The notes beneath the pieces were generated by a model. The model saw nothing but the letters and a program-made list of their open reading frames with translations, was not told the DNA's origin and made no database searches. From Promethearchaeota archaeon (GTDB lineage Archaea; Asgardarchaeota; Lokiarchaeia; Sigyniarchaeales; SOKP01): 29,203 nt of DNA. Below, piece by piece: positions 13,318-17,794 of the stretch. How positions within the stretch are numbered: the stretch's first letter is position 1; the number at the start of each line of letters is the position of its first letter. The stretch lies in contig JBHLPW010000057.1 in the NCBI GenBank assembly GCA_048939015.1, forward strand, positions 1 through 29,203, read 5' to 3'. Both the position numbers and the translations under genes were made by a program.

Positions 13318-13902
13318 TTATAAGATTTTATCATAGTCTAATCCATGAGAATCAAGGATTTTTTCAGTCATTTCTTTGAAGGCATAGAGAATATTTATAT
13401 TTTCTTTTGAGGAAGTTTTAACATAATCTTTTTCATTGTGATTACTAAGAAATTGTTGTATAATTAATTCATCAACTTTTTGCTTTCCCTTATTACTTTG
13501 AATTAAATCAAGTTTAGTTCCAATTAGAATTTTCGGTCGATCATGAAGATTATGTGCTTTTATCTGATCATACCACCAATCCAATCGAGTTAATGTCTCC
13601 ATACTTACTAATTCAAAAACTAAAAATATACCATCTGCTCCATCAATATAATACTTAAACAACTTTTTGAATTGTTCCTGCCCGCCAAAGTCCCAGATCG
13701 TATGCCTTACAAACGTCTCCTCTCCAGATACTATGATTGGGATGTCGTGTGTGTAAAAATCTATTCCTATAGTCATTTGAGTATTTGCATCAAAAGTATC
13801 AAAACATAACCTTCGAGCAATACAAGTCTTTCCTACTCCACCAGATCCGATTAAAACAAGCTTAAAAATATAAGTTGGACTTTCTTCTTGATGGAATGTC
13901 AT
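13318..13902 (-). CDS. Rab-like small GTPase
   Basis: GSGGVGKT, TIGIDF, WDFGGQEQF, YYIDGA, GTKLD, TSSK. Confidence 0.92.
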   Translation of the reverse strand: MTFHQEESPTYIFKLVLIGSGGVGKTCIARRLCFDTFDANTQMTIGIDFYTHDIPIIVSGEETFVRHTIWDFGGQEQFKKLFKYYIDGADGIFLVFELVSMETLTRLDWWYDQIKAHNLHDRPKILIGTKLDLIQSNKGKQKVDELIIQQFLSNHNEKDYVKTSSKENINILYAFKEMTEKILDSHGLDYDKIL

Positions 13903-14038
13903 GATTATCCTATGTGTATATTTTTGATTAAATTTTTCTTGTAGCTTTTAGAATATTTATGAATATTTCTACTTAATACAATAAAAAAAAATCTATTATT
14001 TAATTTTAGTACAAAATATTAAAAATTTGAAAAGAATT

Positions 14039-14641
14039 CTAAAAAACTCTCCTTGTAAAAACTTCTTTATTTTCTTCAATATCAAATTCATGAAATACCA
14101 ATATTTCTTTGGCCATTTCTTTAAAAATATTTTGAATATTGATGTTATCTTTAGAGGAAGTTTTGGTATAACTTTTCACAGCATATCTTTCAATTGAATC
14201 ATTTATTAGTGATTCATCTAAAATAAAAGGATTATCCGTTTGATCTATTAAATCAAACTTAGACCCAACGAGAATTATCGGACGATCTGCAAAATTAAAT
14301 TCAACTAATTTATCATACCAAAAGTCTAAATTTACTAAACTCTCTATTTGTGTTAAATCAAATACTAAAAAGATCCCATTTGCACCATTTATATAGTAAC
14401 GGAAAAGTGGTTGAAAGCGTTCTTGACCGCCAAAATCCCAGATTGATAATCTAATCTTAGTATCTATACCATTAATTGTAAAGGGAAAATCATAAGTATA
14501 AAAATCAATCCCAACAGTAAGTTGAGTATTTAAACTAAAGGTATCAAAACACAGTCTTCGAACCATGCAAGTTTTCCCTACACCCCCGCTACCTATGAGA
14601 CAGACCTTAAAGATATATTTATACTCGTCTTCTTTCGTCAT
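14039..14641 (-). CDS. Rab-like small GTPase (tandem paralog)
   Basis: GSGGVGKT, TVGIDF, WDFGGQERF, YYINGA, GSKFD, TSSK. Confidence 0.92.
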   Translation of the reverse strand: MTKEDEYKYIFKVCLIGSGGVGKTCMVRRLCFDTFSLNTQLTVGIDFYTYDFPFTINGIDTKIRLSIWDFGGQERFQPLFRYYINGANGIFLVFDLTQIESLVNLDFWYDKLVEFNFADRPIILVGSKFDLIDQTDNPFILDESLINDSIERYAVKSYTKTSSKDNINIQNIFKEMAKEILVFHEFDIEENKEVFTRRVF

Positions 14642-14821: not shown

Positions 14822-15886
14822 TTACGTCTGAGACAATAATTCTATTAATGCTCTTGGTATCTCATTATAATCATTAACCGCATAAAATTTTCCACGTCCA
14901 GCCTTTGCAATTTCGCGACATGTATTTATGCCCTGATCAGCATCATTTTCAGAGGGCATCCCTATAACATGTAAAGTGGGAAATTTTTTTGCTAATGCGA
15001 CAGGGTTATCACCCCGATTATAATTGCCATCAGTTATTAATATCCCAAATCGACTTTTTCTTTTTTCTTTTATTTTACTTAACTCTTTTAATCCTTTTTC
15101 TAAACCAATATAAATATTTGTAAACCCAACTGCTTCAGAGTCTAAAATATCATCAATAATAGAAACGATTGGTCTTTTCTGCTCAATTTTTTTCATGACC
15201 ATTGCAGTTGAATTGAAGAGGACAATGGCAAAATCCTCCCTTTCCATATTATACGCTAAAACTGAGGCTGTAAGAGCGGCGTTAAGTAATAACCGTCCGT
15301 ACATACTACCACTTGTATCTAAAACCAATACTACTTTTCTTTTTTGACGTTTTCTTTCAATTCCATATATATCTTGATAATTAAGACTTTTTTCATAAAT
15401 TTTTAAGGGATTATGCTGGATTGTTTCATCCATACTAAACTCAGGCATTCCCATTTGATAATAGGGGACCGTTTTTTTGAACTGTCCCCTAATTCCCTTA
15501 CTAGTAATTTTCAAAGATAATTTTAAAATACTTTGACGAGCTAAACGTCGAAAAATAGACTTATATTTTTCAGAAATAGGACGTCTTATAAAAAAATAGA
15601 CCTCTGGCATAAAATCTCCCGTTTCAGCAGCTCTTTCTGAGAAGAATTGTACTCCTTCTTCTGTATCTAAAGCATCAACACTAGCGTAGATATTTGCTTT
15701 AAGTAATCCCATGAGGGCTTCAAGATTTTTATGTTTTATCGCAAGATATGTCAATTCTTTAATTTGTTTGTAATCTAGAGTATTAGCTAGGTGTTTATAA
15801 TAATCTGGTTTTTTTCTTTTTTTTCTGATAATTTCATATTCTAATATTTCCTTATCCGGACGGCTCTCTGTAAGCCTTACATGCAA
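14822..15886 (-). CDS. von Willebrand factor A domain protein (CoxE/ChlD C-terminal-like); frame open upstream to 15970, true start uncertain
   Basis: MIDAS LDTSGSM ... GFTNI ... ITDG; adjacent to a MoxR ATPase; no in-frame ATG near the 5' end. Confidence 0.88.
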   Translation of the reverse strand: MHVRLTESRPDKEILEYEIIRKKRKKPDYYKHLANTLDYKQIKELTYLAIKHKNLEALMGLLKANIYASVDALDTEEGVQFFSERAAETGDFMPEVYFFIRRPISEKYKSIFRRLARQSILKLSLKITSKGIRGQFKKTVPYYQMGMPEFSMDETIQHNPLKIYEKSLNYQDIYGIERKRQKRKVVLVLDTSGSMYGRLLLNAALTASVLAYNMEREDFAIVLFNSTAMVMKKIEQKRPIVSIIDDILDSEAVGFTNIYIGLEKGLKELSKIKEKRKSRFGILITDGNYNRGDNPVALAKKFPTLHVIGMPSENDADQGINTCREIAKAGRGKFYAVNDYNEIPRALIELLSQT

Positions 15887-15902
15887 TCTTTTCTCAATCT
15901 CT

Positions 15903-15955
15903 TCGGATTCTTCCTCAGAGAAATCATCGATTATTGAAAATCCGATTGATTTAAA
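15903..15955 (-). other. Candidate programmed -1 frameshift signal (slippery heptamers + stem-loop)
   Basis: U_UUA_AAU (15955-15949) and G_GAU_UUU (15943-15937) lie in the MoxR frame; inverted repeat TCGGATT/AATCCGA at 15903-15909 and 15939-15945. Confidence 0.5.
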
Positions 15956-16803
15956 ACAGCTAAAACAATATTAGTAATTACTTCTTTTTTGGATTGAGTT
16001 AATCCATCTTCTAATTCAATTTTGTTATATAATGCCATTACAGATGCTTCAATCCAATTTTTTGAACTATTATTGTTGTCATATTGATTAATCAATGTTG
16101 CTAGGTCTATGGCACCTCTGATTGAACTCCCTCTTCTAATGGATGTATTTTCCCGTGTTATTTGTATTATATTTTGAGAGATTTTTGCAATCTTATCTTG
16201 ATTTCCTTTATTCAAATTTGCTTCTTGTTTAATTATTAGGATCTCTTCATCAGGAGTTTGATAATCCAACTTAACCCAAATAAAACGATCCTTTAATGCT
16301 TCCCCAAGAACAGTTACTCCTACGTGTGCAGCTGGATTCTGAGTAGCCACAACAAAAAAATCTTTATGAGCATTTATTGTTTTCAATTTAGGGATTTTAA
16401 GAATTCCTTCATCTAATGATGTTAATAATGAATTTTGAGTACTTTCTGGCATTCTATTTATTTCATTTATGAATAAACATCCACCATTCATCATAGCTAA
16501 AGCTAATGGACCATATTTATATGAATCCTCTGTATACCCTTGTGAAATTACGAGAGGTGGTTCAAAATAACCGACAAGATTATGAGGTAATAATTCTTCG
16601 CTGCAATCTACTCGATAGAAATCAGAATCGAAAAAAGAAGCTATTGCTCTAGCCAAAGTTGTTTTCCCAACGCCAACTTCACCTTCGATTAATATATTCT
16701 TACCCACTGAATGAGCCAAAACAACTTGTCTTAATTCTTCGGTCCTACCTACTATTTTATATTTCTCTTGTATTTCTTTTACTTTTTCGGTTGTATCAAC
16801 CAT
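15931..16803 (-). CDS. moxR: MoxR-family AAA+ ATPase (CoxD-like)
   Basis: IVGR, Walker A GEVGVGKT, Walker B variant LFINEINR, TQNSLL, ATQNP, EALKDRF, SIRGAI. Confidence 0.9.
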   Translation of the reverse strand: MVDTTEKVKEIQEKYKIVGRTEELRQVVLAHSVGKNILIEGEVGVGKTTLARAIASFFDSDFYRVDCSEELLPHNLVGYFEPPLVISQGYTEDSYKYGPLALAMMNGGCLFINEINRMPESTQNSLLTSLDEGILKIPKLKTINAHKDFFVVATQNPAAHVGVTVLGEALKDRFIWVKLDYQTPDEEILIIKQEANLNKGNQDKIAKISQNIIQITRENTSIRRGSSIRGAIDLATLINQYDNNNSSKNWIEASVMALYNKIELEDGLTQSKKEVITNIVLAVLNQSDFQ

Positions 16804-16876: not shown

Positions 16877-17794
16877 TTAATCATTAGAAATATTAGGTTG
16901 TTCTTCCTTTAATTGCAGTATTATAACATTATCGCTTCGCTTCCATAATCTAAATGAAATTAAACCAATAGAGATTAGAAGGAGGGGGTATATTATTATT
17001 TCTAATAAAGAAGGATTCGCATTATATCCAAATAAAGCTTTTAATAGGGATCCTGTGACTTCAAGCCATTCTGGAGTTGCTAAATTGCCATCAGGAAAGG
17101 ATTCGGGAAGAATGTGTTTAATATTCCACAACTCTTGTATGATCGGATTTACAACTCCAGCTTCGATAAGTTCATGAATTCCATATGTAATGAGCCCAGT
17201 AGCAAACAAGATTAGAATCACATTTGTAATTTTAAAGAATTTTGAGATGTTAATTGCCCGAATTCCATAAAAAGTCAAAAAACCAATTATTATCGATAAT
17301 CCTAGGCCAATTAATGACCCCCATATAATTGTACTTTGGTTTATTGAACCTACTGAAGCAGAACCCGTTAATAGAAGAATTAATTCTATACCCTCACGGA
17401 TTATAATTATAAATGTTAGAATTGAAATTGAAAATACTTTTTGGGTGTTAATCGATCCCTCAACCTTTTCTTCTAGATATACCCTCATTTTTGGACCTTC
17501 TTTACTTACCCATAAGATCAAGGTTATTATAAAAATACCTGAGATTATAAATGTAAAACCTTCAAATAGTTGTTCTAAAAGCCCAGAAAACCCACCATAT
17601 ACTACAGAAAAAATAATAGCAAAGAATATACTTATGAGTATTGCGAGAATAGCGCCTATGTATACATATTTATTGTATTTTCTTTGATTAGTCTTTCTTA
17701 AATATAATAATATTATCACGACGACTAATGTTGCTTCCAACCCTTCTCTAAATGCTAAAAATGCTGGTGTTATTAAATCTATTAATGTTGCCAC
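16877..17794 (-). CDS. FTR1-family high-affinity iron permease
   Basis: Two RExLE-type motifs (REGLE, REGIE), HELIEAG, LFGY; GTG start. Confidence 0.92.
   Translation of the reverse strand: MATLIDLITPAFLAFREGLEATLVVVIILLYLRKTNQRKYNKYVYIGAILAILISIFFAIIFSVVYGGFSGLLEQLFEGFTFIISGIFIITLILWVSKEGPKMRVYLEEKVEGSINTQKVFSISILTFIIIIREGIELILLLTGSASVGSINQSTIIWGSLIGLGLSIIIGFLTFYGIRAINISKFFKITNVILILFATGLITYGIHELIEAGVVNPIIQELWNIKHILPESFPDGNLATPEWLEVTGSLLKALFGYNANPSLLEIIIYPLLLISIGLISFRLWKRSDNVIILQLKEEQPNISND

Follow-up and report, generated by a model that had tools for sequence, protein, structure and literature searches.

The window analyzed here is a 29,203-nt stretch of DNA (contig JBHLPW010000057.1, assembly GCA_048939015.1) from a Promethearchaeota archaeon of the Asgard phylum (Asgardarchaeota; Lokiarchaeia; Sigyniarchaeales; SOKP01), and our subject is the junction between two overlapping open reading frames (ORFs) on its minus strand, the strand that carries every feature of the window described below. 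The zero-frame ORF, moxR (15931-16803 in the ORF list), encodes a 290-aa AAA+ ATPase, and its 3′ end reads ...AAT CAA TCG GAT TTT CAA TAA, with the stop codon TAA at 15933-15931. As a first-pass annotation made from the sequence alone had described, the ORF behind it, which encodes a vWA domain, is read in the -1 phase relative to moxR; it stays open upstream as far as 15970, shares 40 nt with moxR and has no ATG close to its beginning. The first in-frame ATG is 75 codons past the slip site, and the only canonical start near the beginning of the frame is TTG 15886. The same annotation had placed two in-phase slippery heptamers in the overlap, and both are present, U_UUA_AAU at 15955-15949 and G_GAU_UUU at 15943-15937. 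Decoded after a shift at the second of these, the vWA frame would run from 15937 to 14822 and comprise 371 residues, from the first new codon UCA (15937-15935) to the stop at 14824-14822, giving the predicted 660-aa fusion beside the 290-aa ATPase that the annotation had anticipated. It encodes, in order, an acidic linker, a helical domain and a vWA domain; the linker, SIIDDFSEEESEEIEKR, which the annotation had also noticed, is encoded after the moxR stop and before TTG 15886. The predicted junction of the fusion is ...NQSDFSIIDDFSEEESEEIEK, with NQSDFSIIDD spanning the site, and its predicted tryptic junction peptide is EVITNIVLAVLNQSDFSIIDDFSEEESEEIEK. An overlapping downstream ORF in the -1 phase, without an initiation signal of its own, is the layout of a -1 frameshift cassette, and across its two frames the locus has the architecture AAA+ - acidic linker - vWA(MIDAS), the frameshift falling between the AAA+ and vWA parts.

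The moxR ORF matches the Pfam families AAA_3 (76.9 bits, cut-off 27) and AAA_5 (71.4 bits, cut-off 22), carries a Walker A motif, GEVGVGKT (16683-16660), and adjoins a vWA partner. Its best single-domain match in the Protein Data Bank (PDB) is the MoxR-like structure 2r44 (70.5 bits), followed by NorQ and CbbQ, and on these domain and motif matches the ATPase is a member of the MoxR family. The Walker B motif, FINEINR (16473-16453), departs from the canonical hhhhDE in having Asn-Glu rather than Asp-Glu, with the catalytic Glu kept; NExNR is found in 95 of 102 distinct orthologs, and the Asn-Glu form is therefore a trait of the family and not a lesion. The vWA part scores 38.5 bits with Pfam VWA, also matches VWA_2, and contains an intact MIDAS motif of the DxSxS type, DTSGS (15319-15305). 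Searched by sequence against the PDB, it returned no match; its AlphaFold model (pLDDT 82.8) resembles the vWA domains of BatB and of NorD, the latter as present in structures of NorQD complexes. Two other identities were considered and rejected. The chelatase models lie far below their cut-offs (TIGR02031 BchD-ChlD, 23.9 bits against 499.55; TIGR02442, 31.3 and 24.6 bits against 779.45), which excludes a ChlI/ChlD-type chelatase subunit; Pfam Mg_chelatase, at 28.3 bits, nominally exceeds its cut-off of 20.3, but no single matched stretch passes it and AAA_3 and AAA_5 score far higher. The top PDB match overall, midasin (Rea1/Mdn1) at 141.8 bits, is a sum over six AAA domains and seven stretches, the best single stretch reaching 44.4 bits versus 70.5 bits for 2r44, and kinship with midasin was rejected.

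Phase and slip site at orthologous junctions

Slippery heptamers are readily found at the ends of ORFs in the source genome. Among 2893 ORFs of at least 200 aa (29.8% GC), an in-phase X_XXY_YYZ heptamer falls within the final 14 codons of 22.0%, and in 7.0% one of the three final codons is an in-phase T_TTY Phe codon. The heptamers on their own are not beyond chance, and the case therefore rests on comparison. Whole-genome searches of 61 relatives and of 400 genomes of the phylum found a vWA ortholog in 56 and 256 of them, respectively, with an open frame of about 360-400 aa among the matches listed. We compared 101 distinct orthologous junctions from about 20 GTDB families across the Asgard phylum, and 52 distinct junctions from the window's own family. 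Amino acid identity of both ORFs is 74-97% in 30 same-genus loci and 30-50% across the phylum, and on these sequences the moxR and vWA ORFs are under purifying selection.

The vWA frame is in the -1 phase relative to moxR in 95 of the 101 junctions, in the +1 phase in five and in frame in one. An in-phase T_TTT, that is, a zero-frame TTT preceded by T, is present in 91 of the 95 -1-class junctions; in 78 of these 91 a single sense codon separates its Phe codon from the stop, in nine none does, and in 90 the Phe codon lies 0-2 codons ahead of the stop. The four -1 junctions without T_TTT have canonical heptamers, A_AAU_UUC in three and A_AAC_CCU in one, so that T_TTT or A_AAU_UUC stands in the zero-frame phase in 94 of 95. 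The overlap of the vWA frame with moxR measures 10-49 nt in 86 of the 95 junctions, and in most genomes the -1 frame opens only 10-37 nt ahead of the stop, confining the shift to the U-run. The conserved -1 overlap that the first-pass annotation had proposed to look for among orthologs is thus borne out in phase and spacing in 95 of 101 junctions, and no conserved start accompanies it.

In the window's family, the second heptamer reads GGATTTT in 42 of 52 junctions and AGATTTT in eight. Its conserved core is the in-phase U_UUU, with the Phe codon at 15939-15937, and the 6 nt that remain of moxR, CAA UAA (15936-15931), form a spacer made up of its final sense codon and its zero-frame stop. The first heptamer is canonical and in phase in the window, but only 16 of 52 family junctions retain it, and it is not a conserved element. 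A -1-frame stop lies between the first and second heptamers in 41 of 52, the -1 frame opening only 16 nt before the end of moxR, and the shift is therefore pinned to the U-run of the second heptamer. By this comparison the site of the proposed shift is G_GAU_UUU at 15943-15937, and not the first heptamer that the annotation had favored. G_GAU_UUU is not a canonical X_XXY_YYZ heptamer, being non-canonical at the P site; GGAUUUU has been shown by experiment to serve as a -1 site in RNA2 of Pea enation mosaic virus (PEMV) (PMC4737148).

In-frame fused orthologs, whose existence the annotation had suggested checking, were found. A search for longer MoxR relatives yielded 30 proteins, mostly 600-720 aa, that combine a MoxR-type AAA domain (AAA_3/AAA_5) with a matching vWA domain; they come from Asgard metagenome-assembled genomes, some of them named Njordarchaeales or Promethearchaeota. 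One of these, P0021 (647 aa), is encoded identically in two assemblies and is collinear with the window across the junction: ...RILADEESLYDGELEDDEESIEKRKVRL aligns without a gap with the window's ...AVLNQSDF + SIIDDFSEEESEEIEKRLHVRL, matching MoxR as far as ...SDF and the -1 frame from SIIDDF... onward. Within a single GTDB genus, L083 has the +1 split arrangement and its congener L084 a 732-aa in-frame fusion, and TTTTTTCGT is retained at both junctions; the change between a fused and a recoded gene is therefore evolutionarily recent there. In the five +1-class junctions (L059, L066, L082, L083 and L085, from other Asgard families), 6-8 T in a row lead into a CGN Arg codon, as in AAG TTT TTT CGG, with the stop 2-9 codons farther on. 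A +1 shift at a hungry CGN codon is plausible in these five lineages from the sequences at their junctions; CGG and CGC are rare in the source genome, whose lineage differs from theirs.

Synonymous constraint and RNA structure past the slip site

Third-position entropy was calculated from 49 family sequences aligned over 2 kb, in 652 sliding windows of seven third positions. The lowest of the 652 (0.085 bits, against a mean of 1.057 and sd of 0.200) corresponds to a near-invariant block of 25 nt, GATTTTCAATAATCGATGATTTCTC (15918-15942), that is preceded at 15943 by G or A. Its invariant third positions belong to minor codons, AUC, UUC and GAG, which make up 13%, 21% and 20% of their codon families, and protein coding therefore leaves the invariance unexplained. 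The three-base period of variability follows the moxR frame up to the site and the vWA frame from +16 past the stop, and the coding signature of the vWA frame starts at least 31 nt upstream of codon 15886.

A hairpin, UCUCU-GA-GGA-[AGAA]-UCC-GA-AGAGA (15921-15898), pairs 15921-15917 with 15902-15898 and 15914-15912 with 15907-15905. It was tested with RNAalifold and a covariance model built on the genus and then aligned to 87 distinct family sequences. In these 87 sequences, 93.6% of cells are paired, versus 32-76% in slid registers, and compensatory changes occur in six of eight pairs (31 cells), a level reached by none of 500 shuffles; examples are C15920-G15899 changing to U-A and U15919-A15900 changing to C-G. 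A reversed kink-turn register (C-stem UAAUC/GAUUG, with GA at 15901-15900) pairs 95.7% of cells in the genus, but it was ruled out, as the substitutions of more distant genera at G15899 and A15900 disrupt it and are compensated in the hairpin register.

The hairpin is enclosed by a candidate kink-turn stem-loop at 15930-15892, recognized from its sequence pattern. The candidate C-stem consists of U15930-A15892 (86/87) and C15929-G15893 (87/87), the C and G of the second pair being the third positions of the minor codons AUC (13%) and GAG (20%). It would be followed by a 3-nt bulge, GAU (15928-15926), and by sheared G15925.A15894 and A15924.G15895 pairs; of the 87 aligned rows, 86 or 87 have the flanking GA...GA unchanged. 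The U.U oppositions 15923/15896 and 15922/15897 become U-A, U.G or C-G in other genera. A pattern script found the arrangement UC|GAU|GA|UU...UU|GA|GA in 94 of 95 family junctions versus 1.6 in shuffles, and the mirror layout (GA, hairpin, 3 nt, GA) in 25 of 43 junctions from other families versus 4.0 in shuffles. The C-stem has only two Watson-Crick pairs in the window, and the G.A pairs are beyond covariation testing. From this pattern, the chances that the RNA adopts a kink-turn fold at 15930-15892 appear about evenly balanced. That it forms a true kink-turn bound by L7Ae or an L7Ae-family protein, which would then set the rate of frameshifting and hence the ratio of free ATPase to fusion, is possible but doubtful; two L7Ae-family proteins are encoded in the genome, which is usual for an archaeon, and their presence is not evidence of binding. 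An Rfam scan of 15800-16000 gave chance-level matches only. The best relevant-strand match was the archaeal C/D-box sRNA sR7 (15931-15869; 11.7 bits against a gathering score of 37, E = 1.7), which covers the candidate kink-turn region, and C/D boxes form kink-turns.

Proposed mechanism and alternative readings

In our reading, moxR and the vWA ORF very probably constitute a single recoded gene, expressed by programmed -1 ribosomal frameshifting. This was the core of the first-pass annotation, a -1 frameshift joining a MoxR AAA+ ATPase to its vWA partner in an Asgard archaeon, and the comparative tests proposed with it support it. Most ribosomes would read GAU UUU CAA, stop at UAA (15933-15931) and release the 290-aa ATPase. 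A fraction would slip back by one base on G_GAU_UUU (15943-15937), with tRNA-Phe re-pairing from UUU to the overlapping UUU and tRNA-Asp re-pairing poorly, and would continue as UCA AUA AUC GAU GAU to make the 660-aa ATPase-linker-helical-vWA(MIDAS) protein. The conserved structured element at 15930-15892, 6 nt past the heptamer, is the probable stimulator. Frameshifted chlD, and MoxR hexamers with one bound vWA adaptor, suggest by analogy that the number of ATPase subunits with an adaptor tethered to them would depend on the slip rate, and subunit stoichiometry may be controlled in this way. The recoded form has long been retained beside rare in-frame fusions, which suggests that both products are needed.

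Several observations weigh against this conclusion. Re-pairing of tRNA on G_GAU in the P site is poor. The covariation of the hairpin was counted on an alignment fitted to the covariance model and among related sequences, and the fold of the window's own hairpin is thermodynamically unremarkable (z = -0.52). The covarying helix begins 15 nt past the heptamer, whereas the stimulatory structure of a -1 cassette is expected 5-9 nt downstream, and the 6-nt spacing requires that the 2-bp C-stem is formed. Finally, a TTG, GTG or ATG overlaps the stop (position -1) in seven -1-class junctions, and given these, coupled re-initiation may operate in some lineages.

As a general account of the locus, re-initiation would make two separate proteins, the vWA protein being started by termination-reinitiation or by non-canonical initiation at ATA 15934, ATC 15931 or TTG 15886, with the conserved block acting as a coupling signal. 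MoxR and vWA partners are separate genes in most prokaryotes, and the ATA/TAA overlap resembles the common 4-nt overlap ATGA; together with the seven junctions just mentioned, these points speak for it. However, in 79 of the 95 -1-class junctions the vWA frame has no ATG, GTG or TTG from -12 to +45 of the stop. The codon that overlaps the moxR stop varies among lineages (ATA, TTA, CTA or GTA), and no codon at or near the stop is conserved across lineages as a start or near-cognate; what is conserved is the in-phase U-run. The Leu codon TTG at 15886-15884 is internal to the vWA frame and not a start: in the window's family this position is CTG in 36 of 52 junctions, TTG in seven and another codon in nine, and the coding signature of the vWA frame is already established upstream of it. 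The fused orthologs, moreover, align through the junction without a gap. We therefore consider re-initiation unlikely. The prevalence of CTG at this position is itself an observation, as CTG is the rarest Leu codon in the source genome (2.9% of Leu codons), and it may reflect either a further RNA-level constraint or shared ancestry. An out-of-frame ATG at 15927-15925 was also rejected as a start; it is formed by the GAT GAT (Asp-Asp) codons, and it lies in the moxR frame and meets a stop after 17 codons.

Slippage could instead be transcriptional, with RNA polymerase adding one U on the T-run (or removing one in the +1 lineages), so that a subset of mRNAs would encode the fusion. No element other than the U-run is shared universally, the run grows to 6-8 U in some lineages, all five +1 junctions among them, and in chelatase cassettes efficiency rose with the length of the homopolymer (PMC3711429). 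The strict codon phase, the heptamer-like context and a structure at a fixed distance fit ribosomal frameshifting instead. The window's family has just 4 U in the run and the A_AAU_UUC variants have 3, both far short of the run lengths known for transcriptional slippage. We take the slippage to be probably ribosomal, and transcriptional slippage to be unlikely.

A ribosomal shift at the first heptamer, U_UUA_AAU (15955-15949), with stimulation by the stem UCGGAUU/AAUCCGA that the annotation had proposed, would give the junction ...AVFKSIGFSIIDD. The heptamer is canonical and in phase, and in the window the -1 frame is open from 15970. The poor conservation of the heptamer and the -1-frame stops that follow it in relatives contradict this version, and the stem fares no better: it shows no compensatory change, 477-500 of 500 shuffles do as well, it clashes with the covarying hairpin, and its 5′ arm contains the conserved second slip site. 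A shift at the first heptamer is accordingly very unlikely. A pseudogene, or an assembly indel in a single in-frame gene, has negligible probability; a single-base frame difference at a homopolymer is the classic signature of sequencing error, but the same phase recurs in about 100 independently assembled genomes and both ORFs are under purifying selection.

Downstream, the vWA gene is followed by two tandem small GTPases of the Ras/Roc family (13318-14641); upstream, moxR is preceded by an FTR1-family iron permease (16877-17794). In the window's family, the GTPase recurs at 53 of 83 loci and FTR1 at 25 of 83, versus one of 49 and none of 49 in other families; because these neighbors are kept only within the family, we rejected the gene neighborhood as a clue to the client of the ATPase. 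The genome also encodes two distant vWA paralogs (23-25% identity; 762-829 aa) with long, low-complexity, helical-looking N-terminal regions, adjoined by ORFs of 488 aa (L003, contig C20) and 441 aa (L002, contig C82). They were considered as AAA fusions and rejected, being proteins of 760-830 aa without an AAA domain.

Comparison with known recoded genes and MoxR-vWA pairs

Full-text literature searches for a published Asgard MoxR-vWA frameshift, or for a kink-turn acting as a frameshift signal, found none, and a 2021 review of archaeal recoding mentions neither. Experimentally supported frameshifting in cellular archaeal genes consists of Sulfolobus fucA1 together with chelatase cassettes that were tested only in E. 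coli (PMC8211752). If the reading proposed here is correct, few cellular frameshifts in archaea would be as widely conserved as the moxR-vWA junction, which belongs to the lineage closest to eukaryotes, and the annotation of hundreds of "start-less" vWA genes would be corrected. It would extend the rule of one gene encoding two subunits from chelatases to MoxR remodeling motors and offer natural material for testing what sets the stoichiometry of adaptors in AAA+ hexamers. Should the kink-turn also prove real, protein-regulated frameshifting in archaea would be opened to experiment; if it were bound by L7Ae or a protein of that family, no earlier protein-dependent stimulator of frameshifting would be known in archaea, nor any earlier kink-turn serving as a recoding signal, and the element would be conserved in two mirror-image layouts across the Asgard phylum.

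One precedent in a cellular archaeal gene is the alpha-L-fucosidase gene fucA1 of Sulfolobus solfataricus, which undergoes -1 programmed ribosomal frameshifting at A_AAA_AAU (PMC1616953, PMC8211752) and likewise consists of two ORFs in the -1 phase expressed by frameshifting. It differs in that a functional enzyme is made only when the frame is shifted, and in its presence in few strains, whereas both products of the Asgard gene are plausible subunits and its site is conserved across the phylum. The slip site itself is identical to the GGAUUUU at the p33/p94 junction of PEMV RNA2, which also lies one codon before the zero-frame stop, and slippage there relies mainly on the A-site tRNA-Phe and needs a downstream structure (PMC4737148). 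PEMV is, however, a eukaryotic plant virus translated by 80S ribosomes and using long-distance RNA interactions, and its stimulatory structure is unrelated to the Asgard element.

At the protein level, the ATPase match, the vWA model match and the DxSxS MIDAS motif liken the locus to the pairs NorQ-NorD (PDB 9qh4-9qhg), CbbQ-CbbO (5c3c, 6l1q) and MoxR-BatA/BatB. In those pairs the partners are separate genes with their own starts, whereas the Asgard adaptor has no start and would be joined to its ATPase by recoding; the Asgard MoxR differs further in its Asn-Glu Walker B motif, shared by the family members counted above.

The nearest counterpart in design is the fs-chlD group of magnesium/cobalt-chelatase genes, in which normal termination yields a subunit with the AAA+ part alone and a -1 frameshift yields one that continues into an acidic linker and a vWA domain (Antonov et al. 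2013, PMC3711429; Kuznetsov et al. 2022, PMC9227772); production of AAA-only and AAA-vWA proteins from one gene was verified with reporters for magnesium-chelatase genes (PMC3711429). The two systems share the principle of one gene for two subunits, the existence of in-frame fused relatives, the occurrence of -1 and +1 versions and annotation as two adjacent genes, and fs-chlD has archaeal members (Methanocaldococcus). They differ in protein family, the Asgard gene being a MoxR (Pfam AAA_3/AAA_5). They also differ in slip site, the tested fs-chlD cassettes slipping on poly-A of 7-11 A and the Asgard genes having N_NNU_UUY next to the stop. No chelatase partner is evident for the Asgard gene, and its distribution in the Asgard archaea is phylum-wide. 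The analogy to chlD drawn in the first-pass annotation therefore holds for the way the gene would work and fails for its identity: it resembles an fs-chlD in operation and, with chelatase models below their cut-offs, is not one. The Asgard case would be a variant of the known frameshifted chlD design, carried by a MoxR family.

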